From: Candidatus Sericytochromatia bacterium
Lineage (GTDB): Bacteria > Cyanobacteriota > Sericytochromatia > S15B-MN24 > VGJW01
DNA length: 64,000 bases
Reading direction: 5' to 3'
NCBI GenBank assembly: GCA_035286125.1
Contig: JAYKIS010000037.1
Span: 5,365-69,364 of the forward strand
Shown here: in pieces, positions 15,018-38,324 of the stretch
Numbering within the stretch: position 1 is the stretch's first letter
Layout: every line of letters starts with the position of its first letter
The notes under the pieces: model-generated
Databases searched by the model: none
The model's input: only the letters and a program-made list of their open reading frames with translations
Told to the model about the DNA's origin: nothing
Made by a program: the position numbers and the translations under genes

Positions 15018-16136
15018 TCAGAACGAGACGCCGGCCTCGAAGAACGGACCGGACTCCACCGTCGCCCGGAAGGTGTCCTGCAGCGTCTTGGCCTTGGCCA
15101 CGGCATCATTCTGGATGGCAGTGGGGGCCGAGCCATTGAGCACGCTCGTGGGATTCAGGCCCGTCGGCAGGGCCGAGCCCAGCAGGCTGCCGAAGGCGGA
15201 GCCGAAGTCCGTGCCATAGCCCGTCAGCCGGAAGCGCTGGCCGAACTTGACCTTGATGCCATAAAGCGTGAAGCCGAGGGCCGCCTCGGCCTCCGCGGGG
15301 GCCAGGGTCGCGGCTGCTGCAGCTCCGTCCGCCACCGTCAGCGGCGCGATGCCGCCCAGCAGATCAAGGCCGGCGCTGACGGGACCGAGGCCCAGGCCCA
15401 GACCGTAGCCCACAAGGAACTCGTTGAGCGACACGTCCTTGTCCGGTGCGACACCCGGGATGCCCCGATAAGTCTCGCGACGGTAGCCGGCACGCAGGCC
15501 GAGCGCCTTGCCGTAGAAGCCGGTGTAGCCCTGGCTGAGCAGGGGAGAAGGGGCTGAGAGCAGCGAACTGGCAACCGAGGCAGTCTGGGCGTTTCCGGGG
15601 GCGGTCCGCATGCCCGCGGCCTCGAGGCCGCCCGAGAAGATCAAGAAGCCCAGTTCGGCCTTGAGCGCGTTGAGTGATGCGCCGCTGGAGGCCTGGGAGG
15701 CGAGCTTGGGGTTCTGCAGGTTGGGGATCGTGACCGCCGCGTTGGTCACAGGAACGGTGAAGCTGGTGTCCTCGAACGACACGAAGTTGTTGCTCACGTC
15801 CTGCTGGTATCGCGAACCTGCCATGACCTCCATCCAGAAGAAGGGGGGCAGCTTGGGAGGCCAGCCAAGGTTCATGCCGCCGGATGCCGGGGCCTCATCG
15901 GCCGTCTCCTTGGCAACCTTGCCGCTCATGACGAGGCCGTCGGTCGTGCCGCCGGGAGCCTTGGCAGGCGCAGCCGCCGGTGCGGCCGGCGCGGGAACGG
16001 CCGGGGGAGCCGGCACGGCGGGGGCATTGTCCGCGGGCGCAGGGCTGGAGCGCCGGATCTGGGCCTGGGCAGGCGCGGCGATGACAATCGAGGCTGCGAG
16101 CAGGGCAACGGTGCCGATGGGTCTGGTGATGTTCAT
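15018..16136 (-). CDS. Outer-membrane beta-barrel protein of unknown function
   Basis: Signal peptide ending AAPAQA, a Pro/Ala-rich linker, alternating Gly/aromatic-rich strands, and a C-terminal ...FFEAGVSF (terminal Phe). Confidence 0.75.
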   Translation of the reverse strand: MNITRPIGTVALLAASIVIAAPAQAQIRRSSPAPADNAPAVPAPPAVPAPAAPAAAPAKAPGGTTDGLVMSGKVAKETADEAPASGGMNLGWPPKLPPFFWMEVMAGSRYQQDVSNNFVSFEDTSFTVPVTNAAVTIPNLQNPKLASQASSGASLNALKAELGFLIFSGGLEAAGMRTAPGNAQTASVASSLLSAPSPLLSQGYTGFYGKALGLRAGYRRETYRGIPGVAPDKDVSLNEFLVGYGLGLGLGPVSAGLDLLGGIAPLTVADGAAAAATLAPAEAEAALGFTLYGIKVKFGQRFRLTGYGTDFGSAFGSLLGSALPTGLNPTSVLNGSAPTAIQNDAVAKAKTLQDTFRATVESGPFFEAGVSF

Positions 16137-16154
16137 GGTGTCGGGGGAGCCTCC

Positions 16155-17609
16155 TCAGGTCTCCAGGGCATGGTCCAGCAGCAGGCTGGCCTCTCCAAGG
16201 CTCTTGCGCTTCAGCGCCGATTCGACTTTGGCAATGTCGGATCGGAGCTTCGCTGCCTTGGTCACGGTGGGGTCCGCGAGCAATTCGGAGGTGCGCAGCA
16301 GGTCCATCGCGGCCTTGCGCGCGGCCGCATGCTGGCCACCCTTGATTTCGTTGGCGCAGGATTCGGCCAGATCCGCCATCTGGTTCGAGCGATTCACGAT
16401 GAGCCCGTCGAAGACCTCGGCGGTGCGCGCGAGGACGCTGGCGCTACGCAACAGGTTGGGGTCGATTTCGCCCTTCATCATCTTGCGGAGCGCCATCCCG
16501 CCCTTGATGAGCTCGACGGCCCGGCCGAAGACCTGATCTCCCATCACGGCGCTGCCGCAATGGACCAGGATGGCAAGCGGCACGACGAAGGGATACTGCC
16601 TGGCCTTGAGGGTCTCGACCAGTTGCAGCAACTGCTTGTCGATGAGCTTCCACTTGTCCTGATTGCCCACGGCCGAGACCTCGGTCCGATCGGTGACTTC
16701 GGGAATCTCGACGTCCTCGCCACCTGCAGCCACGACCGAACCTGCCGTGATGACCTGTTCCGACAGATCGGCGACCGCAGCGAAGTCCTTGGCAGTGAGG
16801 CCCTTGAGCAGCTTGCCGCCGACCTTGGCCAGGAACCGCGACTGGCGGTGCATCTCCTTGTCGAGACGGACGAGGCGGACGTCGAAGTCGCGGCACCACG
16901 TTTCGATCGTGTCGGGCTCCCGGGCCTCGAGTGCTTCCTGCAGCTTGGGGACGATGCCGCGAACCTCGCGAGCCTCCTTCAGAATGTCGTCGCCAAGCAG
17001 GCCGATTTCCCCCACGAGGCGCACGGCCAAAGGCTTGAGCACGGCCGCATTTCGGCTGCGAGCGGCATCCCGGAGCACCTTTTCGAGGCTGTTCAGTGCC
17101 TCGATGCGGGCTGCCTCGGTACGCAGCAGGCTGTCGGCCTCCGCCGTTCGGTCCTCGAGGAGCAGGCCGATGGCCGCGACGTCTCCGCGGTCATACATCG
17201 GCTTCAAGTCGTCGATGAGCGGCTTGCGGCGCTTGAGGTCCTTGGGCTCATCCTTGCGCCGGAAGAAGCTCTCGATGCGGATGCGCATCGTCTGCGTCAG
17301 TTCGTTGGTCTTGCTCCTGGGCTCGTCACCCTGAGCCTTTCCCCACGTGCGCCCGGTGGGCGAGGCGACGCTATCACCGGCCTTGCGTGCGGAAAAGAAG
17401 TCCTTGGGCGGAGCCTTGCCTTCGGGGACGGCGGCCGGATCCAGCTTGCCTGTACCGCGCGCCGCGAGCGGCCCGGTACCTCTTGGCGGGGCGGTGCGGC
17501 CCTTGGCGGCGATGGAGCCGGTGCGGCCCTTTCTGCCCTTTTTTCTACCCTTCTTGCCACGACCGAAGCCCCCCTTCAGGAGGTCCAGCAGTTTGTTAAG
17601 GAGGCCCAA
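16155..17609 (-). CDS. Hypothetical 484-aa helical protein with an N-terminal amphipathic helix and a polybasic tract
   Basis: No signal peptide or TM segment. N-terminus MGLLNKLLDLLKGGFGRGKKGRKKGRKGR. High GC3. Its stop is 18 nt from the OMP start. Confidence 0.7.
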   Translation of the reverse strand: MGLLNKLLDLLKGGFGRGKKGRKKGRKGRTGSIAAKGRTAPPRGTGPLAARGTGKLDPAAVPEGKAPPKDFFSARKAGDSVASPTGRTWGKAQGDEPRSKTNELTQTMRIRIESFFRRKDEPKDLKRRKPLIDDLKPMYDRGDVAAIGLLLEDRTAEADSLLRTEAARIEALNSLEKVLRDAARSRNAAVLKPLAVRLVGEIGLLGDDILKEAREVRGIVPKLQEALEAREPDTIETWCRDFDVRLVRLDKEMHRQSRFLAKVGGKLLKGLTAKDFAAVADLSEQVITAGSVVAAGGEDVEIPEVTDRTEVSAVGNQDKWKLIDKQLLQLVETLKARQYPFVVPLAILVHCGSAVMGDQVFGRAVELIKGGMALRKMMKGEIDPNLLRSASVLARTAEVFDGLIVNRSNQMADLAESCANEIKGGQHAAARKAAMDLLRTSELLADPTVTKAAKLRSDIAKVESALKRKSLGEASLLLDHALET

Positions 17610-17690
17610 TCTTCCACCTGACGGTCACGGGAGCATCGCAGTCTAGCATTACCGCCGCCCGCCCGTTGTGACCAAAGTCCGCAGACGCGC

Positions 17691-18698
17691 TCAGTGATAG
17701 GGAATGGGTAGAGGTGGCCGGTAGCGGGGGCGCTCGACCTTGGTGCCGGCGATATCCGGCAGGTAGGTGATCATCTCGCCGCGGAGTGTAGACACCGTGA
17801 AGCCTGTCTCCAGCTGCTCGCGATACATCGGCATGTAGTACTGCATCGGCGAGTCAGGCGTGTCGTCAATAAGTTGCAGCTTGGCGTCGAATACGAGGTT
17901 GTTGTTGCTGAGGACATTGCCGCCCCACATCAGGATGTAATTCCGGGCCGGTTCGGGCGGCACCGGACGCTCGCGCCGGACGCTGTCATCGAAGCGCATC
18001 GTGACCCGACCCTGCTGTATGGTGGCGCCGGTGCAAAAGGCCCTCATCGCGGGTGGGGGAATCATGCGGTCCGGATAGAGGATGATGTCGTTGCCCTCGA
18101 TACGCACGCCCTTGTCCTCCCGGGCCTGCAGCATCTCTGCGAGGTCTACCCCGACGACGTCCAGCAGGCCCTTGACCGGCAGGCCATTGGACTTGATCCG
18201 ATCCGGGCGCAGGACGAGTTGCCCCTTGCCGTTGGGGCGCAGATCCCCCTCGATTTCGCAGATGGTGGTGACACCGAACTTCTTGAGCTTGGCCGTTTGG
18301 CGCAAGCGCCCATTGCTGCAAGAGATGCGGATGTCGCTGATGGGCGAGTTCGGGAAATTGAATACGTACCGGTTCATCAGCGCGGCCATGGCCTGCTCCG
18401 TCATGGTGAACTCGGCCACGTGGACCTTGACCAGATAGTCGTTGACGTTGCCGGGAATGAGTGGCTTGCCCAGGTCGTAGGGCAACAGGTCTGCATCCAT
18501 CGCGGGAATGTCGACAACGATCTGCTCGTCGATTCGGTAGGCCACGTTCTGCATGTAGAAACGGGTCGGGGCACCCTTGGGTTCCTCGAAGGGGGTTCGC
18601 GTGGGTGTGGGCGCCGGCACCTCGGTGCCTGCAGGGGAGCCGCCGCAGCCGGCCAGTGCTACGCAAGCCACGGCCGCAAGGGCCTTGAGCCTTTGCAT
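17691..18698 (-). CDS. Lipoprotein of unknown function
   Basis: MQRLKALAAVACVALAGCGG gives a signal peptide plus lipobox. The track ORF starts 10 codons earlier at 18728. I am not confident of any family assignment. Confidence 0.7.
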   Translation of the reverse strand: MQRLKALAAVACVALAGCGGSPAGTEVPAPTPTRTPFEEPKGAPTRFYMQNVAYRIDEQIVVDIPAMDADLLPYDLGKPLIPGNVNDYLVKVHVAEFTMTEQAMAALMNRYVFNFPNSPISDIRISCSNGRLRQTAKLKKFGVTTICEIEGDLRPNGKGQLVLRPDRIKSNGLPVKGLLDVVGVDLAEMLQAREDKGVRIEGNDIILYPDRMIPPPAMRAFCTGATIQQGRVTMRFDDSVRRERPVPPEPARNYILMWGGNVLSNNNLVFDAKLQLIDDTPDSPMQYYMPMYREQLETGFTVSTLRGEMITYLPDIAGTKVERPRYRPPLPIPYH

Positions 18699-18799
18699 CG
18701 TGGACGAGGGGGCGCCGTGGGGGTGCATACTCTGATTGTCGTCGGAGAGGCTGCCAAACTGACGTCTTGGGGTTAAGGTTCGCTGATGGGATGCCTAAA

Positions 18800-20615: not shown

Positions 20616-21731
20616 CTACTTCAGGATGAAGCCGACGCCGACCTCATAGGTGAAGCCGCCCACATCGACGGTGTTGTCGAGGCCATTTGCCGTCGCCTGG
20701 CGAATGCCCTTCTGCGCGGGGAAGTTGACGAAGCCCAGATTGAGGAAACTCTCCGGGGTGAAGCGAAGCATCAGTCCCGCCTTGGTCAGCAGGGCGTTGC
20801 GGAAGTCGTTGTCGCCCACGATGAAGCCCTGGCCGAGGCCGCCGTAGAGGTTGACGACCCGGTTCTTGGTCTCCTTGTAGAACAGCGGATCGAGGGACAG
20901 CAGGAAGGCTGCGTTGAGGTTGAACAACTGGACACTGACTTCCTGCTTGACGGGCTTTCCGAGCGACGAGAATCCGCCCTCGAGGCCGAATGCGAAGTTC
21001 TCGAGGAAGCTGCTTTGGCGCAGCAGCCCGAGGCTCAGGCCAAGACTGCCATCGGCGGTGACGGGCGTACCGGTTCCGGGGTTGCCGCGCGAGGTCGACA
21101 GCCCCTGGAACACGCCGCTGATGTACAGGCCCGAGTCTCCGTAGCGCCGCTCTTCCTCGGCCTTCTGGCGGCGCTCGGCCACGACGTCGCGGTTGGGCTC
21201 GGTCTGGAAGCTCTTGGACCAGACGATGGCACCATCCAGCGCCCGGACGAGCTTGAAGTTGACGATGACGTTCTTGCCCGTGCCCATGGTGTGCCACATC
21301 AGCACGCCGTCGACGCCCAACTGGTGGCCGATCTCGGCAAGCCGCGCGTTGCTCTCGATGGTATTGGAGTAGCTGAAGCTCCTGTCGTCGGACACGACAC
21401 GCGGGGTCCGGCATTCGCGACACTCGACGACCCGGAACCGGTTGGTCCGGATCAGTTCGTCCGTGATACGGGACTCGATGAGCGAGTTGAGTTCGGGAAA
21501 GCGGTCCTGGCGGGTCTCCCGGAAGACCACGACCTTGACGAGGCCCGGATCCACCGTCCGGATGGAATCAGGGAACCCGGCGAAGAGTTGGTCGAACAGT
21601 GCCGGGCTGGTCAGCATGGCGACGGCCGGATCCTCGCTGACAGCCTGCTTGTTGTCGGCGGCCAGAGCTGCCGGCACGTGCAGGCCGAGTACAGCCAGGC
21701 CGGCGAGGGTAACGAGGGTGCGACGAATCAT
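20616..21731 (-). CDS. Outer-membrane protein: CsgG/LpoB/FlgO-like N-domain plus a C-terminal beta-barrel-like region
   Basis: Signal peptide MIRRTLVTLAGLAVLGLHVPAALA. The N-domain pattern (VVVFRE...LNSLIESRITDELIRTNRFRVVE...LGVDGVLMWHT...NFKLVRALDGAIVW) matches the small periplasmic ring/activator fold. The C-terminal half has amphipathic Gly/aromatic strands. This is the third gene of the 20616-25449 operon. Confidence 0.65.
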   Translation of the reverse strand: MIRRTLVTLAGLAVLGLHVPAALAADNKQAVSEDPAVAMLTSPALFDQLFAGFPDSIRTVDPGLVKVVVFRETRQDRFPELNSLIESRITDELIRTNRFRVVECRECRTPRVVSDDRSFSYSNTIESNARLAEIGHQLGVDGVLMWHTMGTGKNVIVNFKLVRALDGAIVWSKSFQTEPNRDVVAERRQKAEEERRYGDSGLYISGVFQGLSTSRGNPGTGTPVTADGSLGLSLGLLRQSSFLENFAFGLEGGFSSLGKPVKQEVSVQLFNLNAAFLLSLDPLFYKETKNRVVNLYGGLGQGFIVGDNDFRNALLTKAGLMLRFTPESFLNLGFVNFPAQKGIRQATANGLDNTVDVGGFTYEVGVGFILK

Positions 21732-21765: not shown

Positions 21766-23460
21766 TCAGCGGCGGGAACGGGCATTGATGCGCCCCAGGC
21801 TCTGTCGGACGTCCGTCAGGCCGGGGTCGAGGTCCAGGGCTCTGGACCAGGAGATGCGGGCAAGCCCCAGGTCACCCATCTTGTAGTAGATGGAGCCCTG
21901 CAAGGCCAGGACCTGGGCATTGTCCGGTGACAGGTCGAGAGCTCGTGCCACCTCGGCCAGGGCCTTGTCGTAACGTCCCGAGTAGGCGAGACGCTGGGCC
22001 GACAGAAATCGACGCTGGATCTCCCCGGCCAGGGCCGCCACTTCACTCGGCGAAGGTGTCAACACCACGACTGGTGGCGAGGGATAGGGGGGAGGTGTCG
22101 GATAGGGCGGTGGCGTCGGATACGTCGGGAACTTGAAGTCCGTAGGCAGCTTGTTCTCGATTTCGATCTTCGAGACGGACTCGACCTTGGAGCGTTCCGA
22201 CACCTCGCTGCGTTGCGTCGCGTCGGATCGGATCGTGCTGTCGCTGCGGATGTTGGTGTCGGAACGGTTGTCCGACCGCGCGTTCGTGTCCTGCTGGAAA
22301 CGTGCCTCGGAGCGCTGCATGCCGGCGGGTCCGTAGCCCTCTCCTCCCATCATGGCCTGTGGCGCGCGCATCACCGCGGGCTCGGCCACGGCAGGCTTGG
22401 GCTCGGGACTGGGTTCAGGGGGCACCACAACCTTCATGTACAGGTCGCGATCCTCGGGGAACAGCAGGCTTTCCAGATCCACCGAACTGCCCTTGCGCTT
22501 CAGGCGGATGAAGTCTCCCCCCTGGCGCGGCGGATCGGCAGGCGTTGCCACTGCCGGTGCGACAGGCGTGGCCTGCGCGGGCGCGGCCGCCACCACGGCC
22601 GGCCTGACCGGCACGAACTCGTCGAGACGGGGCACCCGGGGCGTAGGCTCGGATACGAAGCGGAATGCGGGTGCTGGCGTCTCGCCCGGTTGCCGTGCAT
22701 AGGGGTTGGCGCGGGGTGCGGCAAGGGGTGCCGCCATGGGCGCAGGCGGTGGTGCCACGCGCAGCCCGGGCCCGGATGGACGCGCGGAGGGCACGGCCAC
22801 GACGGTGGTCGGCGGCGCGGGAACCTCGCCGCCAGGCACAACGGGGGCCTGGGGTGCAGGCGGCAGGGGGCCGACGGCCGCCGCGGGCACTGGGGGCGGC
22901 GTGACGGGGACCGAGGCGCCTTCCGCGGGGGTCGGGCCAGCCGTGAGCACGGGGGCCACGGCCGGTTCGGGCCCGACGGCCACCTCCTGAGGACTCGTCG
23001 AGGCCGGGGGAGCATCGGGCACTTCGGGGGCGGAAGCGGCTTCGACCGGCGCAGCGACTGCGGCGGCCACCTCCCCGGCGACTGGCGCCTCCGTCGGCGT
23101 CACGGCCTCCGGATGCGCAGCGGCTGGTCCTGGCTCGGCCTTGGCCGCCACGACCTCACCGGGCCGACCGGTCACGCCCGAGGCGACGTCGACGACCTCG
23201 CGCAGGCGGCCCTCCTCGAATCGGAGAACATACCGGGCGGAGCCCGGCTGGCCGTAGGTCATCTCTTCGATCGTGCCTTCGGGACCCCCGGTCATCTGCG
23301 ACAAGGGCACGCCAAGGAACTCGACCACCTTCTGGGGGCTCATGCCCGGGCGAAGTTCGCCCAGGTGCTCGACGGCCGCGTGAGCCCGGGCGACGACGGG
23401 ATGCACGATCAGGCTGGCTGCCAGCCCGAAGGCCATCAGGGAGGGACGGCGCGAACCCAT
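21766..23460 (-). CDS. Secreted BamE(SmpA/OmlA)-like / Pro-Ala-rich / TPR protein
   Basis: Signal peptide, then LRPGMSPQKVVEFLGVPL...YVLRFEEGRLREV (BamE-like). That is followed by about 300 aa of P/A/V-rich sequence, RSD-type repeats and YPTPPP repeats. The C-terminus has TPRs (YSGRYDKALAEVARALDLSPDNAQVLALQGSIYYKMGDLGLARISWSRALDLDP). Confidence 0.7.
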   Translation of the reverse strand: MGSRRPSLMAFGLAASLIVHPVVARAHAAVEHLGELRPGMSPQKVVEFLGVPLSQMTGGPEGTIEEMTYGQPGSARYVLRFEEGRLREVVDVASGVTGRPGEVVAAKAEPGPAAAHPEAVTPTEAPVAGEVAAAVAAPVEAASAPEVPDAPPASTSPQEVAVGPEPAVAPVLTAGPTPAEGASVPVTPPPVPAAAVGPLPPAPQAPVVPGGEVPAPPTTVVAVPSARPSGPGLRVAPPPAPMAAPLAAPRANPYARQPGETPAPAFRFVSEPTPRVPRLDEFVPVRPAVVAAAPAQATPVAPAVATPADPPRQGGDFIRLKRKGSSVDLESLLFPEDRDLYMKVVVPPEPSPEPKPAVAEPAVMRAPQAMMGGEGYGPAGMQRSEARFQQDTNARSDNRSDTNIRSDSTIRSDATQRSEVSERSKVESVSKIEIENKLPTDFKFPTYPTPPPYPTPPPYPSPPVVVLTPSPSEVAALAGEIQRRFLSAQRLAYSGRYDKALAEVARALDLSPDNAQVLALQGSIYYKMGDLGLARISWSRALDLDPGLTDVRQSLGRINARSRR

Positions 23461-23463
23461 GGC

Positions 23464-25449
23464 CTAGCCCTCCGCCAGCGTCTTCATCGAGAAGCGACCC
23501 TGGCGCACCATGTCCCGGATCCGGCCCACCACCTCGCGGCGGGCGGTCTCGGCACCATCCGGATCGACAGGCTGGCCCTCGAGACGTTCGAGCGCGTCCA
23601 TCAGCAGGGCGCGCCGCTTGTCGGTCATAGCGCCCAGCACGGCTTCCTGCAGGGGCTCCTCGGCGTCACGGATCGCCTGGGCGACGACGCCGGGATCAAG
23701 TTCGCGCACCGCGTCCTTGATGACGGCGGCAGGCAGTCGTGGCAGGTCGGCGAAGGTCAGGTACAGTTCGCGAACCTTGCGCATCATGTCGGGGTTCTGG
23801 GTCTTCAGGTTGTCGAGGATGCGCTGCTCGGTCGTCGCGTCGGCATTGTCGAGGATGTTGACCAGCAGGCCGACGCCGTCGGTGACGACGGCGCTGAAGG
23901 ACGGCGCCTGCGATGCCTTCATCGCCAACTTCTCGGCAATGCTCTCGAAGGTCGTGAGCGGGATGGCCTCGAGCTCGCCCAGCGCCGTCGCGACGGGCCC
24001 CTGTTCCTCGACCGGCCACTTGGCCATCAGGCCGGCAGCCCGCTTGTAGGGCAACTGGGACAGCACCAGGGCCCGGACCTTGGAACCCTCGTCCTGCAGA
24101 ATCCAGAGTACCTGGGAATCGTCGATGCGATCGAGGAAGCTGAAGGGTGCCAGCTTGCGCCCGACCTGGGCGCCCTGCTCGGCCTTGGCTGCGACGAGCA
24201 GGGGATAGGCCTCCTCGAGCACGGCGACGGCTTCATCGGTCGCCACATCGCGGGTCGAGAGCAGCGCGGCCTCGACGCGGGTCCTCTCCTCATCGGCGAG
24301 GCCGGGCACGGTCCTGGCGGCCTGGGCCATGCCGAGGACGCGAAGCAGGTTGGCGACCTTTTGCAGGCCTTCCTCGCGCCGGGCGAGGCCGCCGATCATC
24401 GGCGCGGCCAGCTCGGGTTGCTCGAGCAGCATGGCCACGATCTCCTGACGCAGGGCCTGCGCGGCCCGAGCTGCCCGCTGTTCTTCCGCAGACGGCCCTG
24501 CGGGGGCCTGAGCCTCCTTGGCTGGCTGGGGCATCAAAGCCGACGCCCAGGCCGGAGGTGCATCAGTGGCAGGAGCGGCATCCGGCTTTCGGCGCCGCAG
24601 CAGCGCAATCAGGCCCAGGACGAGGCCGAGCCCCAGCAAGCCGAGCAGGACCGCCAGCATGGTGCGGATGGCAGGATCGCTCTCGCCGGCAACAGGTGCG
24701 GTTCCGGCTGCCAAGGGGGCGGCGACGGGCAGGCCGGCTGCCGTCGTCACGCTGTCCGTGCCGGTGGCGGCCAAGGCGGCGGCCTTCTGCAGCGTCGGCG
24801 GGAACTGCCGGTTCATGATCTCGAGGCTGTCGCCGCGGGCGAAGTTGAGGTCCGCCTTCTGGTAGATCAGCTTCTCGATGAAGTCGCGCTCTTCCTGAGC
24901 GAGGTTCTTCTCGATGACCGTCAGGATGCGGACGCGGTCGATGCGCAGGCCCGCCGCTTCCGCGACAGGGGCCGCAGCCTGCTGGGCCACGGGAGGCAGC
25001 GACGGCGGCGCCGCGACTGGCGCCGCTGCCGGCCTCGCTGCGGCGGGACGCGCCGGCAGGCCGGGCAGGTCGACCTCGTCCGGATCCAACGGTTCGGTCC
25101 CGGGCAGGTTGGCCGTGAGCGCCGGCTGCAACGGGGCCGGCAACACCTGCAGCGGACGCGGTCCCTGCCCGTGGATGCGCTGCATCTTGACACGGACCTG
25201 GACGATGAACCTGTCGTTGCCCAGGTAGGATGTCATCGCCTGCTTGAGGCTCTCCTCGAGCAGTTTCTCGTAGCTCAGCTCCTCGAGCACCACGCCGTCC
25301 TGCCGGGCGTCGGTCGGACCCGCCGGCAACTGCGCGAGCGCAGGTTCCGCGAACGCGCCGGGCAGGCTGGCCAGGACCGCCACGCAAACCGCACGCAAGG
25401 CGCCGGAAAGGGGCTGGGCGCTCGCCGAGAAGGGCCGTGGGGCTCGCAT
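23464..25449 (-). CDS. Membrane protein: FliF-like periplasmic ring motifs, a TM segment and a FliG-like cytoplasmic region
   Basis: Start at ATG 25449 (MRAPRPF..., with hydrophobic segment ALRAVCVAVLASLPGAFA). There are two ring-building-motif-like segments, a TM helix (IRTMLAVLLGLLGLGLVLGLIALLRRRK) and about 340 aa that align by eye to the FliG N, M and C domains (PFSFLDRIDDSQVLWILQDE; YLTFADL...VRELD...AIRDAEEPL...MTDKRRALLMDALE). See findings. Confidence 0.65.
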   Translation of the reverse strand: MRAPRPFSASAQPLSGALRAVCVAVLASLPGAFAEPALAQLPAGPTDARQDGVVLEELSYEKLLEESLKQAMTSYLGNDRFIVQVRVKMQRIHGQGPRPLQVLPAPLQPALTANLPGTEPLDPDEVDLPGLPARPAAARPAAAPVAAPPSLPPVAQQAAAPVAEAAGLRIDRVRILTVIEKNLAQEERDFIEKLIYQKADLNFARGDSLEIMNRQFPPTLQKAAALAATGTDSVTTAAGLPVAAPLAAGTAPVAGESDPAIRTMLAVLLGLLGLGLVLGLIALLRRRKPDAAPATDAPPAWASALMPQPAKEAQAPAGPSAEEQRAARAAQALRQEIVAMLLEQPELAAPMIGGLARREEGLQKVANLLRVLGMAQAARTVPGLADEERTRVEAALLSTRDVATDEAVAVLEEAYPLLVAAKAEQGAQVGRKLAPFSFLDRIDDSQVLWILQDEGSKVRALVLSQLPYKRAAGLMAKWPVEEQGPVATALGELEAIPLTTFESIAEKLAMKASQAPSFSAVVTDGVGLLVNILDNADATTEQRILDNLKTQNPDMMRKVRELYLTFADLPRLPAAVIKDAVRELDPGVVAQAIRDAEEPLQEAVLGAMTDKRRALLMDALERLEGQPVDPDGAETARREVVGRIRDMVRQGRFSMKTLAEG

Positions 25450-27990: not shown

Positions 27991-29982
27991 TCACCCTTCG
28001 TCGTCCTGACGGAGCGTCGCGAGGACGGACAGGTCCTCGAGTGTCGTCGTATCCCCGAAGGCCTCGCCGCCACCGGCGAGTTCCCGCAGCAGGCGCCGCA
28101 TGATCTTGCCGGACCGGGTCTTGGGGAGGGCGTCGGTGAATCGGACGTCCTCGGGGCGCGCGATGGCGCCGATTTCGGTGGCGACATGGTTGCGAAGCTC
28201 GGCTTTCAGGGCCTCGTCGCCCTTGCGCCCAGCCTTGAGGGTCACGAAGGCGACGACGGCCGTGCCCTTGACCTCGTCGGGCCGACCGACGACGGCTGCC
28301 TCGGCCACTGCGGCGTGGCTGACGAGGGCCGATTCGATTTCCATCGTCCCGAGGCGATGGCCCGCGACATTGATGACATCGTCCACCCGCCCCATGATCC
28401 AGTAGCAGCCCTCGGCATCCCGGCGGGCCCCGTCACCGGTGAAGTAGCTGCCGGGGACCTGAGACCAGTACTGGGCCAGGTAGCGGGCGTGGTCGCCGTG
28501 GATGGTCCGGGCCATCGAGGGCCACGCCTCCCGGATGACGAGGTAGCCGCCCTGGCCGTCCGGAACGGGTTGTCCCTGACCGTCGACGATATCGGGCTTG
28601 ATCCCGAAGAACGGCTGGGTCGCCGACCCCGGGCGCGTCGTGGTGATGCCGGGCAGCGGAGCAATCATGACCGCCCCGGTTTCCGTCTGCCACCACGTGT
28701 CGACGATCGGGCAGCGTTCACCGCCTATCGTGCGGTGGTACCACATCCAGGCCTCGGGGTTGATGGGTTCGCCGACCGTGCCCAGCAGGCGCAGCGTGCT
28801 CATGTCGTGGCGTGCAGGATGGTCGTCGCCCAGCCTCATGAAGGTACGGATGGCCGTCGGGGCGGTGTAGAGGATGGTGATGCCCCAGCGCGCGATCATC
28901 GACCAGAAGCGATCCGGCCCCGGATACAGCGGGGCGCCCTCGTACATGAAGACCGTGGCACCCGAGAGCAAGGGGCCGTAAACGACGTAGCTGTGGCCCG
29001 TGATCCAGCCCACGTCTGCCGTGCACCAATAGACGTCCTGCTCCTTCAGGTCGAAGATGAACCGCGAGGTCAGGAAGACCTGGGTCATGTAGCCCCCGGT
29101 GGTGTGAACCAGGCCCTTGGGCTTGCCCGTCGTGCCACTGGTGTAGAGGATGAAAAGCCGGTCTTCGGCACCTACGGGCACGGCCTCGTGCTGCTCGCCC
29201 ACCTGGCTGCGGCGCTCGTGCCACCAGAGGTCCCGGCCCTCGGTCCACGCGACGGGCGTGCCGGTGCGTCGCACGACGAGGACGTGTTCGAGCGTGGGGA
29301 TGGACGGTGCGGCCGCATCGACCTGCGCCTTGAGCTGGACCACCTGGCCTCGGCGCCACCCCCCGTCGGCGGTGATGATGGCCCGGGCTCCCGCGTCGTT
29401 CATGCGGTCCTTGAGTGCTTCGGCGCTGAAGCCGCCGAAGACCACGGAATGGACCAGGCCCAGTCGGGCGCAAGCCAGCATCGCGATGGCTGCCTCGGGC
29501 ACCATCGGCATGTAGATGCCGACGCAATCCCCCTTGGCGAGCCCGAGTTCCGACAGGACCAGCGCCATCCTGCAGACTTCGCGGTGCAGTTCGAGGTAGG
29601 TCAGCGTGCGGGTGTCGCCTGGTTCGCCTTCCCAGATGATGGCGGCCCGATTCCGCGCCGGTCCGTCGAGATGGCGGTCGAGGCAGTTGTAGGCGAGATT
29701 CGTCGTGCCGTCCTCGAACCAGCGCGTTTCGGGTCCGGAACCGGATCGCACCGTCTGGAACGGCCGGAACCAGTGCAGCTCGCGCGCGACCTCGCGCCAG
29801 AAGACCTCAGGCACTTCCCGGGACAGGGCCTGCAGACGTTCATGGCGGTCCGGATCCCCGACTGCGGCGGTACGGCTGAAGCCCTCGGGCGGGGGGAAGG
29901 CCCTGGACTCATGCAGCACCGAGGCGATCGCGGCCGGTTCCTGGGGCATGGGGCGCTCCTTGTTGTCGGGATTGCCCGACAT
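27991..29982 (-). CDS. acs: Acetyl-CoA synthetase
   Basis: AMP-binding motif [11 protein letters not shown], plus [22 protein letters not shown] and [11 protein letters not shown]. Start at ATG 29982, or at ATG 29949 with a GGAG RBS. The track ORF extends to 31797 and that extension is spurious. Confidence 0.95.
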
Positions 29983-30033
29983 TGTGCCTGAGCCCCGGAT
30001 GAGGTGACAAACTCCGTGACGCTGGCTTGAAGG

Positions 30034-31530
30034 GTGCAGATACCTGCCGCCGTGGGGCATAACATGGGAGATTGTCCGGCGGTCGCATCCGCCGGGCAGG
30101 GAGACGCTGCCTTGTCCCAACAGGACCTCTTGACCCCGGCCCCGGCCCCTCGCACGGTCGTGGCCCGCCTGATCGCCCAACGCTACGGTCGGGTTCTGGA
30201 TGGCGACATGGCCGAGATGGCCCTCGAGCGCCTGGGGCGTCCCGGCGAGGAGCCCGAGGCCACGGCGCAACGTCTCGTCCGGGATCCCGAGGCCCACGAG
30301 CAGGACCTTATCCGCATGGCTGCGGTGGGCGAGACGTGGTTCTTCCGGGACCCTCTGCATTTCAGGTTGCTCGAGGAGGAACTGCTTCCCCGGTTGCTCC
30401 GGGATCTGTCGCGGCCCATCGTGGCGTGGGTGGCCGGCTGTTCGACGGGTGAAGAGGCCTACAGCCTTGCCATTGCGGCGCGACGGGTCCTGGGTGACGA
30501 GGCCCCCCACCGCATCCGCATCCTGGCCACCGATCTCAACCCGGCCTTCATCCAGCGTGCCCGCGCTGGCCTGTTCCTGAAGCGCAGCTTCCGGGGCACG
30601 ACGCTCGAGGACCTTGCCCCGTGGCTCGACGCCGAACCGGACGGCTACCGCGTCAAGGCCGAGGTGCGCGAGATGGTGACCTTCGCGACGCACAACCTTG
30701 TGCCTGACGAGGGCTACCAGACGCTGCTCGAAGGTCAGGCCGACATCGTCCTCTGTCGCAACGTGCTCGCCTACTTCGCCAAGGACACGTGTCGCTCCGT
30801 CAACCGCAAGCTTGCAGCGTGCGTGGCACCCGGCGGGGCCTTGCTGCTCGGGCCGGCCGAGACGGTACTGCACGACGCGGGTGCCCTTCGCCTCGAGCAA
30901 CGCGATGGTCTGTTCTATTACACCAGACCCGCGGATTCGGTTCCGGGCTCGATGCCGCCCGACATGCCCCTCCCGAGGGCCGTGCGCGCCGCCGAGTTCC
31001 GGCGGGCCACGGGTTTCCTCGGGGCGACCCCGCGGGCTCCGTATCACGGGGGCACCGGTCCCCTGCAACCGCTGCCGTTCCGCGCCGAGGTGGCCGAGGA
31101 GCCTTCGCCGGATGAGGGCCTGCTGGGTGAGGCGCTCATGCTGATTGATGTCGGCAATCTCGCCGACGCCGTCGTGCTGTGCCAGGCCGCGCTCGAGGAG
31201 GATCCCTGTCGTCCGGCTGCGCACTTCCTGCTTGGCCTTGCCCGTCGCCTTCAGGGCTCCTACCAGGAAGCCGTCCACCTGTTCCGGGCCGCCGCCTATC
31301 TCCAGCCCGATGACTGGCTCGCGCCGTTCCACCTTGCCGAGTCCTACCGCTCGCTGGATCGCTGGGACGAGGCCATCCGCGAGTACCGCAGCTGTCTGGC
31401 CCGCATGGATGCCGGACAGGTCGAGCCTGCCCCGGCCCTGCTCGGCGGCTTCTCCATCGCGTACTTCCGCAAGGCCTGCGAGCGCCACATCGAGCAGCTG
31501 GGCGAGATCCTGAGCGAACCCTCGGCGTGA
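30034..31530 (+). CDS. cheR: CheR-type protein-glutamate O-methyltransferase with C-terminal TPR repeats
   Basis: [27 protein letters not shown] and [19 protein letters not shown] motifs. The C-terminal ~150 aa are TPR-like. The start is uncertain: GTG 30034 or ATG 30064. Confidence 0.8.
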
Positions 31531-31598
31531 TGCTTTTGGCTCTGCCCGACTGACGCACGTCACCGAGGTTCTTCCGCTCGTCCGCCACAATCGGGCGT

Positions 31599-32942
31599 AT
31601 GAAGCGCGTGTACGTGGATGCGACGGAACGTCTGGAACGGGCCGATCGCGGGGCCTATGCGCCCGGGGACTGGGCGCGGCTTGCCGGTGTGGCAGCCCGC
31701 ATGCGGGAGGGCTGGCCCCGCGAGGAGCTGTTGTCTCCTGCGGCCTTGCCACCCACGCGCCGCGTGCAGCCGGCCGAGGAGCGTGCTGTCCGCGCAATCG
31801 TGGGGCGCTGCGGGGATCGCGCCGTCCTGGCGTGGCCGGAAGCCTTGGCGCCCTGGGGGGTGGGTGAGCTGTTGCTGCGGGAGTGGCTCGTCCGCGATCC
31901 CGGCCGCATCCTGGTCCTGGCGGCTCCGGGCAGGCTCGAGGCGTGGCGGCGTGTCCTTGAGGGCGCAGGACCCCGCGTCCACTGCATCGCGCAGGGCGAG
32001 CCCCTGCCGGATGAAGCGTTCACGGGTTGGCTCGTGGATCGGTGCGATCGGGGGCTTGCCGAGTTGCCCCGACCGGATGGTGTGCGGCGTGTCGTCCTGC
32101 TGGCGCCCCGCCCGTGGCCGGAGGAAGTTGGCCTGGCCGCGCTCTCCGATTGGCTGGGCAAGCGTGATGTGCCCCTGGTGTCTCTCGAACAGGCCATGGT
32201 GGTCGAGGAGACGGCACCAGCCGTCACGCCTGCGGCAATCGAGGGACGGTTGGTCGCCGTTCGGCCCTCGATAGCCGAAGGGGCCCTTCTGGCCGAGGTT
32301 GCCGCCCTCTCGGACTGGTTGGTCGAGACGGGACGCCTCGACGCGGTCGAGATTGCCGGGCCGTGGGTTCGCTTGTTGGCGACGGCCGAGGCCTGGCCCG
32401 GAGCCATTCCCCAGGTTGCCGCCCACCTGCTGGATCGGGAACGTGAACCGTTGGCCAAGGCGCGCCTGCTCTCCCTGTTGCGCGCGGGCCTGGAGGCGTG
32501 GGAGGTCGGGCCATCCCTCGAGGGGACGTTGCAGGCTCTCGTAGCGACCAGTCATCTCAGGGTCCGCCTCGCGGTCGCAACCTCGGTGATGGGCGAAGCT
32601 CTTGCGGCCCGCATGCCGGCAGGCGTCGACGTGGTGGTCGATGGCGAGGTCGGTCCGGACGCGGTGCATGACCTCTGGTTGCACGCCGAGCCCGTCATGC
32701 ACCCCCTGGACATGGCCAGTCGTAACGCGACCGGTAGCCGCCACCATCACCTGGTCCTCGCCGGCGGGCGCCTGCATCGGTGGCTGGCTGCACTCGATGT
32801 CCGTGGCCTGCTCGATGCCTCAGGTCCGATGTGGGCCGAGTGGGTCGCGAGACTTCCGGTCGCGATGGGGCCGGTCGACATCTGGCGCAATCCCGAACAG
32901 GCTGCGAGCCGCCTGGCCTCCATCCGTGACCAACTGGGCTGA
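31599..32942 (+). CDS. Hypothetical protein; possibly a degenerate (catalytically dead) SNF2-like two-lobe helicase
   Basis: A real gene by GC3 and by tight coupling to the next ORF. By-eye spacing resembles SNF2 motifs with the catalytic residues replaced: [16 protein letters not shown] for [27 protein letters not shown] for LIVxPxSLxxNW, VVLLAPRPW for DEAH. The assignment is an inference. Confidence 0.6.
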
Positions 32943-32956
32943 GGTTGGGCCCGAAC

Positions 32957-34918
32957 ATGCAGGATCCGACACTTCGTACCTTTACGCTTGACTTCTATCG
33001 GCGCCAGGGCGCCGATGCCTCCCCGCTCGACACCCAGCGGCGACGCTGGGAGGTGCGCCTGGGTGATCGGCGCTTCGATATCTCGTTTGCTGCCGGCGAG
33101 GACGCCGAGGCCATTGCCCCGGGTTCGCCGCGGCTCAAGGAGATTCTGGCGGAGTGCGAGGAGCGGGGGGCCGTCTCCCATCGCCACGTCGTCGTCGAGC
33201 CCATCGCCGATCCGGCCGCCCTGCTGCTGGGCGTGGCCCCCGAGGGCTGGATGCTTTCCCGCGTGCGGCTCGAGCGGGTCCGCACCCGGCGTGTCGTCGC
33301 CTTCTCCCATCGGGTCGCCTACGGTGCCGGTGTCTTGCCCCACCCCATCGAGGAGACACACGTCGACATCCTGGATCCCGTTACGGGCATGGCCTGCCCT
33401 GCCCTCGTCGACGCGTTGTCGGGCACCCAGGTCTTGCCGACCGATCCACCGCGCGACCTGCCGGCGCTGGGTCCGCTGCATGCTCGTGCGCTGGCCCTCG
33501 TCGACGCCCGGACCAGCGTCCGGGGAGAGGCCCTCGAGCGACAGCTTGGCGGCCGGCGCACCGAGTCCGTGACCCGCATCCGCCGGCACTACGGCTCGCT
33601 GCGCGAGGATGCCCGACAGCGGGAAATCCGCACCCTGGAGGAGAACCTGGCCAAGGTCCTAGGTGCCATCCGCGGTGCGTTGCCGGGCGATCTGGCCGAT
33701 CTGAGCCGGGAGGGTGCCGAGATGGCACGCCGTCTCGATGCGGCTCGCAAGGGGCAGACCGTTGCCCTGACTTCGCTGGCGCGTCTCGAGGAGGAGGCCG
33801 TCAGGGCCGAGGAGGCCGCGCACGAGGTCACGCTGACCACCGAACTCGTAGCCCTGCACGTCATCAGCTTCGATGAGGTCACCTACCTGGCACGCTTCGT
33901 GCGCCCGGCCGAGGAGAGCTTGCCGTCGGTCGAGTCTCCCGAGGTCCGTCTGGGCTACGTGCCTGTGACGCGCCAGATCCTGATGCCCGACTGCGGCGTC
34001 TGTGGCGAGGTCGTGGACGACCCCGTGATGACGGGCTCGCTGACCCTGGCCTGTCGGACATGCATCCGGGCTTGTCCCTCATGCAGCCGCCCTTGCGAGG
34101 ATCAGGGACAGGCCGTCACAGCCTGCGGCACTTGTTCGGTCGCGTTGTGTCCCGCTTGCGACGCGACCTGCGGGGATTGCCAGGAGCATGTCTGCGCGTC
34201 GGACCGTGCTGCCTGCGGAGCGTGCGGTGCCCCGGTGTGCGCAGGTTGTCGCGGAGTCTGTGCCGAGGACGGCGCGGTCGTCTGTACCGGTTGTCGCGTC
34301 GAGGCCGGTGGTGGCTTTGCCTGCCAGGCGCATCTGGGGACTTGCTCGGGTTGCGGGATCCGGGGCCTTGCCTCCGGCATGGTGCCGTGCGGAGTGTCCG
34401 GCGAACCGTCCTGCGCCTCGTGCCTCGGCAGTTGCGCTGCCTGTGGCGTCAAGGTCGCGCGTCGCCTGATGCTCGAGGGCGTCGGGGGGGCCTATTGTCC
34501 GGATCATGCGGGCACTTGCCGCACATGCTTCGAGGTCGTGCGTGCCGATGACCTCGGTACCTGTGCCTCGTGTGGCCGCCATCAGTGCGGAAGCCATCGG
34601 CCCGAATGCGTCTCGTGCGGCCTGCCTGCGTGCGGGGAATGCGCGACGGCGGAGCGGTGCGGTGTCTGCAGCCGTCTCGAGCCCCTGTCGATTGTGGATC
34701 CCCGGGCCAGGATGCTGGCCCGCGAACTGGGCTTGCGTGGCGTCCGGAACCTATTGCTGGCTGAGGTCGGCGGGTCCCGCGTCATCGAGTGGCAAGGCAG
34801 CCTGGGGCGCTGGGGACGCATGGCCTGGGACGCCTCGGGACGTCAGGTCGCGGCCTTCCGCTACGGACCCGTCACCGCCATGGTCCAGGAGGTCATGGCC
34901 CAGTTCCGGCCTGCTTGA
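32957..34918 (+). CDS. Hypothetical protein: YqhG-like N-region, coiled coil and a 17x CxxC poly-zinc-ribbon array
   Basis: ATG 32957 follows a GAGG that overlaps the upstream stop; the track start is TTG 32945. The N-terminus has IAPGSPRLKEIL. The middle is a heptad-like charged region. Residues encoded at 33992-34669 contain 41 Cys. Confidence 0.7.
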   Translation: MQDPTLRTFTLDFYRRQGADASPLDTQRRRWEVRLGDRRFDISFAAGEDAEAIAPGSPRLKEILAECEERGAVSHRHVVVEPIADPAALLLGVAPEGWMLSRVRLERVRTRRVVAFSHRVAYGAGVLPHPIEETHVDILDPVTGMACPALVDALSGTQVLPTDPPRDLPALGPLHARALALVDARTSVRGEALERQLGGRRTESVTRIRRHYGSLREDARQREIRTLEENLAKVLGAIRGALPGDLADLSREGAEMARRLDAARKGQTVALTSLARLEEEAVRAEEAAHEVTLTTELVALHVISFDEVTYLARFVRPAEESLPSVESPEVRLGYVPVTRQILMPDCGVCGEVVDDPVMTGSLTLACRTCIRACPSCSRPCEDQGQAVTACGTCSVALCPACDATCGDCQEHVCASDRAACGACGAPVCAGCRGVCAEDGAVVCTGCRVEAGGGFACQAHLGTCSGCGIRGLASGMVPCGVSGEPSCASCLGSCAACGVKVARRLMLEGVGGAYCPDHAGTCRTCFEVVRADDLGTCASCGRHQCGSHRPECVSCGLPACGECATAERCGVCSRLEPLSIVDPRARMLARELGLRGVRNLLLAEVGGSRVIEWQGSLGRWGRMAWDASGRQVAAFRYGPVTAMVQEVMAQFRPA

Positions 34919-37900: not shown

Positions 37901-38324
37901 AGACAGGGGCCCCGAAGAGGGCCATGATGGCATCGCCGATGTACTTGTCGACCACGCCGCCATAGCGGTAGATCGGTTCGGTCAGAACCTCGAAGAAGCG
38001 GTTGACGATGCTCGCGACGGCCTCGGGATCCATCTTCTCGGACATCGCGGTGAAGCCCGAGACGTCCGTGAACAGTACCGTGACGACACGGCGGTCCGAT
38101 TGTTGCAGCTCCGTCGTGGGTGTGGGCCGTGCCATCGGGGCACCAGGGGCCGTGAGGGCCTGCTGCAGGTCGCCGGCCTGCCGGGCCCCGCATCGGGTGC
38201 AAAAGGCGTGGTCCGGCGCGACGGGCGCGCTGCACGACGCGCAAGGCAGGCCGACGGCCACGCCGCATCCCTTGCAGAAACGGGCGTGGGCCGGGTTCTG
38301 CGTGCCGCAGGACGGACAACCCAA
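34893..38324 (-). CDS. Double zinc ribbon / class III adenylate-guanylate cyclase / AAA(STAND) ATPase / TPR protein
   Basis: N-terminus CPSCG...CKGCG...CASC...CTRCG. Cyclase core VTVLFTDVSGFTAMSE...KYIGDAIMALFGAP...VRVGLHTG. P-loop GGAVGTGKS. Long C-terminal TPR array. TTG start. Confidence 0.9.
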   Translation of the reverse strand: MGCPSCGTQNPAHARFCKGCGVAVGLPCASCSAPVAPDHAFCTRCGARQAGDLQQALTAPGAPMARPTPTTELQQSDRRVVTVLFTDVSGFTAMSEKMDPEAVASIVNRFFEVLTEPIYRYGGVVDKYIGDAIMALFGAPVSHEDDPLRGVMAGWAMQKAAQAFAADLEQQTGIRLRVRVGLHTGLVVAGSVGGTQRSDYTVTGETVAIASKMEAAAPPGGVLVSADTWQQVQGHFTAEARDAVQAGGRDQTVQAWLILGPAEGTGPTMTDQATDLIGRARERKQLASAWRAARAGRPAGLLVGGAVGTGKSLLIRHETRRLRQEGALVVWGRGVSFDRDRAHALAISVLQPLLGETPASPDAALVALETLVARWLPYNVPRSASSLAHLLGLPVNHPEVASLPPQQRRSASFVVLDDLLTAMARETPTILVLDDLQWADAPSLEWLGGLISRLGREGGHVPLLLVLASRDPEALPSAVTQHGLLEPMPLAPLVAEEAEALATTLLQASPESLGTPVRQLLDEILARAEGNPFYLKELIRTVQEAGVLIRTGATWAVAEGRTEFKLPGSVQGALAARLDQLESAQRQTLQVASVLGRTVEDALLRTILDREVEAELGDLVRLGFLYRMPDGRHAFNQVVAQEVAYENLLLATRRDWHERAALAIERRDLPGTPGRARTLAHHMARADRDEPAARYAAEAGDEARHAFGNEEAIRLYNQALEHLDRLHANPARVADRASLLAHLAAVETTTGEVSTAREHLETAISLVPDHLDRGAWEAGLIRALIRQGETHKAIARCQERIAATRDPVEEATLRATLAEQWLTTGALGDAEGQCQAALALVRPERHPLVVADIMNILGNLASRRRGNEAIGYYQRMLLLVDEAKDVPRRVVGLTNLAMAQEMSGDWAAAADAYARAHAICSRIGDRSRGAHILNNLGGLRLKLGLLDEAEDALRGADALYEALGNPLGRAACTNFLGQVHLARDEAEAAIPFFEASAGLLERAGAGTYAAEVLRGLGHAQLLAGRAEEARAVLDKARELAVATGQQAETASIDVLRARLLMMADSTDEALHLIRASIETLRSHGHALEKGRAMVHAAWVAARAGQVHEADSLLLGARDLFEGIRAGQELRRVEALLKQAGTGP

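Follow-up and report, generated by a model that had tools for sequence, protein, structure and literature searches.

The rotor of the bacterial flagellum combines FliF and FliG in a 1:1 stoichiometry and works with stator units, MotA5B2, that are themselves rotary. Within FliF, the third ring-building motif (RBM3) builds the S-ring and RBM1 and RBM2 surround the export gate; in FliG, the EHPQR motif of the middle domain binds FliM. To our knowledge, the FliF/FliG rotor is so far known only from machinery that has a type III export apparatus at its centre. The present work concerns a gene (23464..25449, minus strand) in a 64,000-nucleotide stretch of contig JAYKIS010000037.1 from Candidatus Sericytochromatia bacterium (GCA_035286125.1; the whole stretch is referred to as the window), in which a reduced FliF is naturally joined end to end with a complete three-domain FliG. 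Comparison of loci identified five recurrent components, namely the fusion protein, a tetratricopeptide repeat (TPR) protein of 180-923 aa, a protein termed here X (350-390 aa), MotA and MotB, and it is fairly probable that these form a stator-driven, envelope-located machine with the fusion protein at its core which is independent of the flagellum.

The module shares with flagellar FliF and FliG the predicted RBM3 fold with an RGD-containing second half (RBM3b), the FliG_N, FliG_M and FliG_C domains, an Arg or Lys at the R281 position, a transmembrane helix and then a putative C-terminal helix abutting FliG_N, and a MotA/MotB partnership with R90/E98-type charges. It differs in that FliF and FliG are one polypeptide, RBM1 and RBM2 are lacking, the β-collar is replaced by an LPGLP loop and EHPQR is lost; moreover, genes for FliM/N, export, rod, hook and filament are not nearby, and the module has its own TPR and predicted outer-membrane barrel partners. 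Engineered FliF-FliG fusions (Vibrio, 8z4d/8z4g; Salmonella) are likewise end-to-end single chains, and the Vibrio construct is reported to form S-rings of 34/35-fold symmetry (PMC11481574, PMC10941966). These constructs contain full-length FliF with three RBMs (~945 aa), whereas the window-type protein is natural and has RBM3 only.

The motA2B2 locus of Aliivibrio (Vibrio) fischeri ES114 is the same module: locus L035 carries X (350 aa), a TPR protein (180 aa), a 579-aa fusion protein, MotA2 and MotB2. This fusion protein is ~23% identical to that of the window and, unlike in the clade to which the window belongs, the stator genes lie inside the operon. It is the one copy for which published genetics was found: insertion mutants of motA2 and motB2 show normal swimming in soft agar, FlrA does not activate either gene, and the pair was called unique among sequenced Vibrio species (PMC3948606); their locus tags are VF_A0186/VF_A0187 (PMC10804989). 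By position, the module genes are probably VF_A0183-VF_A0187, of which VF_A0186 and VF_A0187 alone are confirmed in papers, and the fusion would be VF_A0185. In the literature searched, the three upstream V. fischeri genes, including that of the 579-aa fusion, were not found discussed. Literature on Sericytochromatia flagella, natural FliF-FliG fusions, FliG-like or MotAB-like proteins and VF_A018x likewise yielded no description of the protein family or the module, and the retrieved passages of a 2025 survey of MotAB evolution do not mention a FliG-linked non-flagellar clade.

Two further groups of systems are comparable in part. ExbBD-TonB, TolQR-TolA-TolB-Pal, GldLM, AglRQS-Glt and ZorAB all join an inner-membrane motor of the MotAB family to periplasmic and outer-membrane partners in the absence of a flagellum, and TolQR-TolA-TolB-Pal also shares the TolB-N/LpoB fold predicted for the N-terminal domain of X. 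These 5:2 systems have TonB/TolA/GldM-type shafts and GIT-type A subunits and none has FliG or an RBM ring, whereas here the stator is of flagellar type and its presumed target would be a FliG ring. The injectisome and sporulation-channel rings of SctJ/PrgK, SctD and SpoIIIAG share the α-β-β-α-β ring-building fold, but they scaffold secretion channels without FliG or a stator, and the sequence likeness seen here is specific to FliF RBM3.

Results

The fusion gene and its layout

Read from ATG 25449 to a stop codon at 23464-23466 on the minus strand, the gene encodes 661 aa, and a deposited protein (P0001) from a Candidatus Sericytochromatia metagenome-assembled genome (MAG) is 100% identical to the product. 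The longest possible open reading frame (ORF) extends to 25539; start 25449 is the one used by relatives and by the deposited annotation. Among genome records, the nearest to the gene, at 97%, is a MAG of 'Candidatus Tanganyikabacteria' obtained from Lake Tanganyika. Given the G+C content of the window (~68%), numerous spurious ORFs overlap the gene; the fusion frame itself has G+C fractions of 0.75/0.49/0.86 at the three codon positions, a pattern typical of genuine genes. The gene is under strong purifying selection, with ratios of non-synonymous to synonymous substitution (dN/dS) of 0.05, 0.07 and 0.11 against three orthologues and of 0.01-0.075 in the FliG part. Its features are as follows, all on the minus strand, with the basis of each in brackets.

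23464..25449, minus strand: fusion gene, mini-FliF (RBM3 only, as predicted) and FliG, 661 aa (ORF, identical deposited protein, Pfam, dN/dS)
25330..25449, minus strand: signal peptide or N-terminal membrane anchor, aa 1-40, ending ...PALAQ (hydropathy, family N-termini)
25174..25299, minus strand: predicted RBM3a, helix and strand, aa 51-92, LEELSYEKLLEESLKQ...FIVQVRVKM (AlphaFold, alignment to Vibrio FliF, Foldseek)
24952..25173, minus strand: Pro/Ala-rich insertion where FliF has its β-collar, aa 93-166 (predicted disorder, predicted local distance difference test (pLDDT) 48-65)
25054-25068, minus strand: LPGLP motif, aa 128-132 (family alignment)
24802..24951, minus strand: predicted RBM3b, strand-helix-strand with RGD, aa 167-216, ...ARGDSLEIMNRQF (Pfam YscJ_FliF_C, AlphaFold)
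24589..24663, minus strand: transmembrane helix, aa 263-287, then RRRK on the cytoplasmic side (Kyte-Doolittle maximum 2.78)
24376..24453, minus strand: putative equivalent of the FliG-binding helix at the FliF C terminus, aa 333-358, LRQEIVAMLLEQPELAAPMIGGLA (alignment to the mini-FliF of locus L039)
24187..24369, minus strand: FliG N-terminal domain, aa 361-421 (Pfam FliG_N, 5e-9)
23905..24117, minus strand: FliG middle domain, aa 445-515, with EHPQ degenerate (DEGS) (Pfam FliG_M, 3e-9)
23488..23814, minus strand: FliG C-terminal domain, aa 546-654, with the torque helix TDKRRALLMDALE at aa 609-621 (Pfam FliG_C, 1.5e-18)

A preliminary description of this DNA, made from the letters alone, had proposed a single polypeptide of mini-FliF and FliG in five parts. 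Pfam, the PDB profile searches, Foldseek and the split relatives described below agree with that proposal, and all five parts are present: a signal-like N-terminus, a segment LEELSYEK...FIVQVRVKM, a linker, a second periplasmic segment that reads RIDRVRIL...RGDSLEIMNRQF, and the transmembrane and FliG part. Residues 14-39 are weakly hydrophobic, and signal-peptide-like N-termini are found across the whole fusion family. The expected transmembrane helix followed by RRRK was placed by hydropathy at aa 263-287, with ~370 residues after it, and the periplasmic part is as short as had been suggested (~220 aa). Given the single transmembrane helix, the RRRK that follows it and the positive-inside rule, the FliG-like part would lie in the cytoplasm; the description had named the opposite placement as a refutation.

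The N-terminal part resembles a single RBM3 of FliF

Profile searches and structure prediction support the reading of the N-terminal part as a single FliF RBM3 without RBM1, RBM2 or the β-collar. Taken alone, the window sequence matches Pfam YscJ_FliF_C weakly (E ~0.014); among 28 diverse family members scanned, 13 match this model at the same place (best 4.3e-5), and the RBM3b region of the window protein covers model positions 94-147. When a profile of the N-terminal part built from 34 sequences was run against 177,635 PDB sequences, FliF was the only protein found at E < 0.3, with values for its chains of 5.5e-5, 1.8e-4, 2.4e-4 and 9e-4. The alignment is collinear, the first half corresponding to Vibrio FliF 264-316 (RBM3a) and the second to 417-459 (RBM3b, including RGD). 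The AlphaFold model contains a helix at 51-76, strands at 81-92, 167-180 and 208-214 and a second helix at 185-199 (core pLDDT 83-94), that is, an α-β-β-α-β core broken by ~75 disordered residues. In Foldseek, the top 18 PDB matches of the model are all to the RBM3/collar of FliF (E 3.5e-5 to 5.7e-4, probability 1.0) and PrgK follows as match number 19. The preliminary description had likened the two periplasmic segments to ring-building motifs; they make up a single RBM3, with the linker between its halves, and not two motifs.

The Pfam model of the remaining FliF ring-building region (PF01514, YscJ_FliF; RBM1/RBM2) was unmatched in the window protein and in the 28 scanned members, and no strands were predicted at the collar position in the AlphaFold model, where a disordered Pro/Ala segment is found instead. 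The loop at this position varies among family members, but its LPG(L)P motif hardly varies at all: all of 34 diverse fragments have LPG, which is also the commonest form in an alignment of 126 sequences; RGD is present in 111 of these. The window protein scores 13.2 bits against the NCBIfam fliF model (TIGR00206; cut-off 129.75) and misses the equivalog level.

The C-terminal part contains all three FliG domains

FliG_N (5e-9, 37.2 bits, gathering score 25), FliG_M (3e-9, 37.4 bits) and FliG_C (1.5e-18, 67.5 bits) all exceed the Pfam gathering score in the window protein, a likeness well beyond chance and in agreement with the preliminary description, which a lack of significant FliG_M or FliG_C matches would have refuted; in the same 28 members, FliG_C and FliG_M were each found in 28 and FliG_N in 25. 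The family profile matches the FliG structures of Thermotoga maritima and Aquifex aeolicus in the PDB at 1.6e-23 to 8.6e-20, and T. maritima FliG (1lkv) can be aligned with the C-terminal domain of the window protein. The protein is not an orthologue of flagellar FliG: it reaches 73.1 bits against a cut-off of 226.7 in the NCBIfam fliG model (TIGR00207) and so misses the equivalog level there too.

Two details of the preliminary description are borne out. The replacement of EHPQR by DEGSKV was located at aa 453-458, and in the family alignment only the Glu of EHPQ is conserved (119 of 126) while the H, P and Q positions vary. The charges noted on the torque helix are likewise present in this protein, the stretch TDKRRALLMDALE lying at aa 609-621. 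Across the family, the equivalent of R281 (E. coli numbering) is Arg or Lys in 114 of the 126 members, and the stator-contact charges of the FliG part appear to be largely kept.

Split relatives mark the junction

In locus L039, MotA and MotB are followed by a 382-aa mini-FliF and then, with its start overlapping the stop before it, by a separate gene for a FliG-like protein of 310 aa. The mini-FliF matches the full YscJ_FliF_C model at 4.7e-10 (40.5 bits, gathering score 23.8) and the N-terminal part of the window family with an hhalign probability of 97.3%. Locus L040 is a second such case, and the split mini-FliFs carry YscJ_FliF_C without any other FliF domain. The L039 mini-FliF ends in '...GNPETATNILNNWMSSESESSEEL' and its FliG partner starts with 'MAEEMKLSGLEKAAILFKVLG', ends that are joined directly in the fused proteins; the join in the window protein reads LRQEIVAMLLEQPELAAPMIGGLARREEGLQKVANLLRVLG. 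These gene pairs put the junction at about aa 356-361, and aa 333-358 of the window protein align with the C-terminal end of the L039 mini-FliF (...RQAIITLSVGNPETATNILNNWM...; ...NPETATNILNNWM).

The family is found in distant phyla

An exhaustive profile search yielded 3,384 FliG-like representatives, each standing for a 50%-identity cluster. Among the best 150, at least ~120 were matched from the RBM3 region through FliG_C, with lengths of 560-780 aa, and the family reading frames examined are intact, full-length ORFs. The named sources include Sericytochromatia, gammaproteobacterial and 'Pseudomonadota' MAGs, one deltaproteobacterial MAG, MAGs of Bacterioplanoides and Thalassolituus, cultured Bermanella and Marinicellulosiphila, and A. 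fischeri ES114, A. logei and A. finisterrensis. The module is also carried by contigs of metagenomic origin without classification, and there the fusion protein shares only ~20% identity with that of the window. In databases, the proteins are named 'FliG C-terminal domain-containing protein', 'flagellar motor switch protein FliG' or 'hypothetical'. A 38%-identical member is found on a 3-kb contig (L014) binned as Stenomitos sp., a photosynthetic cyanobacterium, so that either the binning is wrong or the module occurs in a lineage without any flagella.

In a crude neighbour-joining tree of the FliG regions, 11 of 13 canonical-length FliGs cluster and six split-type proteins lie beside them. Given its very short internal branches and midpoint rooting, this tree is silent as to whether the module is ancestral or derived.

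The fusion gene belongs to a five-component module

The order of the five genes differs between lineages, as follows.

Gammaproteobacteria: X, TPR, fusion, MotA, MotB
Sericytochromatia L013, L016 and L017: fusion, TPR, X, MotA, MotB, with an extra stator pair in L016 and L017
L001: MotB, fusion, TPR, X, MotA
L037 and L038 (~20% identical): the same gene set, as far as the short L038 contig extends

In the window clade (the window, L006/L012, L007/L010 and L011), the genes for the fusion, a 564-aa TPR protein and a 389-aa X are together. Flagellar genes were not found within ~10 kb at ~12 loci with annotated flanks, nor beside the gene in the window. As a control, a canonical 333-aa FliG (L041) sits in a flgBC, fliE, fliF, fliG, fliHIJ ... 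fliPQR, flhBA cluster, of which the fliF product has 534 aa and both YscJ_FliF and YscJ_FliF_C. In the window, the surrounding genes are housekeeping genes, and a cluster for type III secretion or a flagellum was ruled out there. A defence system of the Zorya type was also rejected: PADLOC shows generic ZorB/MotB and weak ZorA similarity, and the fusion, TPR protein and X are unmatched.

The genes flanking the module vary by lineage and include polysaccharide export genes (L009), Tad genes (L017) and two-component systems (V. fischeri and L001). Several lineage-specific neighbours were recorded. The extra stator genes of L016 (13645-16228) and L017 (13633-16687) form tandem pairs, MotA-MotB-MotB-MotA, an arrangement reminiscent of Shewanella and Pseudomonas, whose flagellar motors have dual stators. 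A gene for a DUF5723 protein lies divergently and directly upstream of the fusion gene in L013 (8294-9595) and L017 (8049-9662) and may encode a further lineage-specific partner. In L001 (16944-18480), motA is followed by two paralogues of ~250 aa with signal peptides that resemble outer-membrane β-barrels and are missing from the window. In the gammaproteobacterial MAG locus L009 (12614-18819), a Sel1/SPOR protein precedes the module and a Wza/Wzc/Wzy-type export cluster follows it; a Sel1 homologue adjoins the fusion gene in L033, and Sel1 repeats make up MotX of the Vibrio T-ring. In L008 (10001-13709), the fusion gene is followed by one for a KAP-family P-loop NTPase.

Partner proteins

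The two partner genes of the window directly follow the fusion gene.

21766..23460, minus strand: TPR partner, 564 aa, secreted and Pro/Ala-rich with C-terminal TPR repeats (Pfam TPR)
20616..21731, minus strand: partner X, 371 aa from the likely start MIRRTL (conservation at most loci, AlphaFold, Foldseek)

The ATG of the TPR partner lies 3 nt past the fusion stop codon, and TPR proteins homologous to it in the C-terminal TPR unit adjoin the fusion at nearly all loci; the TPR proteins of the module each carry either a signal peptide or a lipobox.

In X there is a signal peptide, followed in an AlphaFold model of a homologue by an N-terminal α/β domain and eight long strands. Foldseek matched the C-terminal half to the OmpA transmembrane domain (2e-7), Ail, OmpX, OmpW and NspA, all eight-stranded outer-membrane barrels, and the N-terminal half to the C-terminal domain of LpoB (TMt 0.66) and also to full-length TolB chains, the N-terminal domain of TolB having an LpoB-like fold. 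The L001 orthologue of X matches FlgO weakly, which is consistent with such a fold, and the gammaproteobacterial X proteins end in ...GYRF, a typical β-signal. A PDB sequence-profile search with X found nothing, and its fold is known only via AlphaFold and Foldseek; as modelled, X is a TolB-N/LpoB-like periplasmic domain joined to an eight-stranded outer-membrane barrel.

In relatives, MotA_ExbB and MotB_plug/OmpA genes adjoin the fusion gene. The nearest relatives of the module MotA outside the module are flagellar MotA/PomA proteins of Bacillota, Marinimicrobia and others (33-38% identity), and an R...(+8)...E/D pair with the spacing of E. coli R90/E98 is present in ~19 of 23 module sequences. 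The module MotB of relatives with a linked stator has the plug and an OmpA-like domain and keeps the channel Asp within 'YSD'. Together, the features of the fusion protein, stator, TPR protein and X indicate inner-membrane, periplasmic, peptidoglycan-binding and outer-membrane components. In a sister MAG of the window clade (L036, 9323-11937), motB-motA is immediately followed by a gene whose 372-aa product is FeeM/acyltransferase-like and contains a cNMP-binding domain, which hints at cyclic-nucleotide control of the stator there.

Other genes of the window

Downstream of dus, at 15018-18728 on the minus strand, are three genes (345, 484 and 372 aa) without a Pfam match; these have the same order in L006 and L007 of the window clade and are not beside the module in L001. 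A 1268-aa ORF at 27991-31797 (minus strand) is a high-G+C artefact of which the C-terminal ~650 aa (~27994-29940) are an acetyl-CoA synthetase (ACAS_N, AMP-binding), and its upstream part overlaps a CheR gene on the opposite strand. The latter encodes a fusion of CheR methyltransferase and TPR (30034-31530) and is the first gene of a trio on the plus strand (30034-34918), followed by genes at 31599-32942 (447 aa) and 32945-34918 (657 aa) that are conserved and without a Pfam match; the trio adjoins acs in the sister MAG L006. The CheR-TPR gene is an orphan chemotaxis-type methyltransferase gene, no other che genes being in view. A large adenylate cyclase-AAA-TPR gene lies at 34893-38324.

Discussion

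Like FliF and FliG, the fusion protein most probably operates together with a MotAB stator. The RBM3 domains would assemble into a ring resembling the S-ring at the periplasmic side of the inner membrane, and this would hold a 1:1 FliG ring beneath the membrane. As ions pass through MotA5B2 units anchored to peptidoglycan, these would push the torque helix of FliG_C through the retained charge pairs and turn the ring or at least strain it. Given that RBM1, RBM2 and the FliM-binding EHPQR are missing, an export gate, rod or switch complex would not be expected; without FliM/FliN there would be no direction switching and, without an axle, the output would be passed within the periplasm. The invariant LPGLP loop plausibly binds the TPR protein, which would contact X in the outer membrane, and the module would thereby couple ion-motive force to some periplasmic or outer-membrane process. 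In the window clade, the fusion, TPR and X genes would form an operon, with motB-motA elsewhere in the genome. The most specific form of this proposal, an axle-less, ion-driven rotary motor, free-standing and without any secretion apparatus, in which MotAB spins the FliF(RBM3)-FliG ring and the TPR adaptor relays its output to the outer-membrane barrel, is offered tentatively and is possible, albeit doubtful.

Several observations weigh against a stator-driven machine. The acidic residues of the torque helix are only partly kept, the equivalent of D288 being acidic in 45 of 126 members and that of D289 in 44 of 126 (D618-A619 in the window protein), and the equivalents of K264 and R297 are not conserved across the same alignment. 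motA and motB were not found in the whole 64-kb window; in a sister MAG of the window clade, with a fusion protein 89% identical, motB-motA is on a different contig, which suggests that the stator is unlinked and not lost in this clade, and the linkage of a stator to the window organism is thus deduced from that MAG. The 771-aa member in L008 lies on a contig of 2.1 Mb; MotAB, a TPR protein and X are all missing within 10 kb of it, and it may be a differently wired variant. In addition, a profile of the 51-residue segment before FliG_N gave only chance matches in the PDB (DnaG and designed repeats) and no FliF peptide. Since that profile is uninformative, the claim that aa 333-358 are homologous to the FliF C terminus and form a FliG-binding helix rests on the alignment with the split relatives.

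Given that the acidic pair of the torque helix is only partly conserved, that linked MotAB is missing for some members and that RBM1/2, rod and L/P rings are all absent, leaving no axle or bearing, it could be argued that the fusion protein is a non-rotating scaffold or sensor whose membrane-anchored FliG domains dock MotAB-type units without spinning. Such a scaffold might gate ion flow, sense ion-motive force or envelope stress, or act as a stator reservoir, with the TPR and outer-membrane proteins as anchors, and the two-component systems beside the module in V. fischeri and L001 would suit a sensor. This scenario is unlikely: the torque contacts, i.e. the MotA R/E pair and the R281-equivalent of FliG, are conserved, RBM3 serves to build rings and keeps its fold in the model at high confidence, and 5:2 units of the MotAB type are rotary by construction. 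It is less likely still that the protein is an accessory or alternative rotor part of a true flagellum, such as a second FliG/FliF for special conditions. Several hosts are flagellated (Aliivibrio, Bermanella and others), the database label is FliG, and in one biofilm model of V. fischeri the expression of motA2/motB2 fell along with that of certain flagellar genes (PMC10804989). Nevertheless, RBM1/RBM2 and the FliM-binding EHPQR are lacking, the score is far under the NCBIfam equivalog cut-offs of both fliG and fliF, the annotated loci have no flagellar neighbours, unlike the canonical control, and the module has a stator and envelope partners of its own; furthermore, swimming is unaffected in mutants of motA2 and motB2, and neither gene belongs to the FlrA regulon (PMC3948606).

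The reduced domain content, and the disappearance of motAB from the locus in the window clade, raise the question of whether the gene is a decaying, functionless remnant of a lost flagellar system. This is strongly disfavoured by the dN/dS of 0.05-0.11 (0.01-0.075 in the FliG part), by the intact full-length ORFs, with more than 100 representatives of 50%-identity clusters at 540-780 aa, and by the recurrence across phyla of the LPGLP and RGD motifs and of the same four partner genes. FliG and MgtE_N are homologous, and weak MgtE_N matches occur in 24 of the 28 scanned members (best 5e-8; window protein 0.0065), so that the C-terminal region might in principle be an MgtE-N-like Mg2+-sensing module unrelated to torque. 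This is hardly credible, as FliG_C, FliG_M and FliG_N score much higher and all three domains are covered, the MgtE transporter domain is absent and the gene is tightly linked to MotAB.

Judged from sequence, the five-component module would be a rotor-stator core of the flagellum that has been redeployed, or preserved, outside it and most likely works with its stator. Here the torque-receiving half of the rotor is reduced to RBM3 and FliG and accompanied by its own stator and envelope partners, in distant phyla. It would offer a natural minimal rotor-stator unit for the study of torque, with the 1:1 FliF:FliG ratio built in, and A. fischeri ES114 is a genetically tractable host. The question of whether a MotAB-FliG-FliF core could be useful without secretion, rod and filament thereby becomes approachable. 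The finding also corrects the label 'flagellar motor switch protein FliG', which is misleading where flagellar motility is read from MAGs. If the axle-less motor proposed above is true, the module would represent a new class of MotAB-powered envelope machine and either a radically reduced flagellum or a surviving relative of the rotor-stator core that preceded the flagellum, two histories that the polymorphism of fused and split genes and the occurrence in both Sericytochromatia and Proteobacteria would serve to separate.

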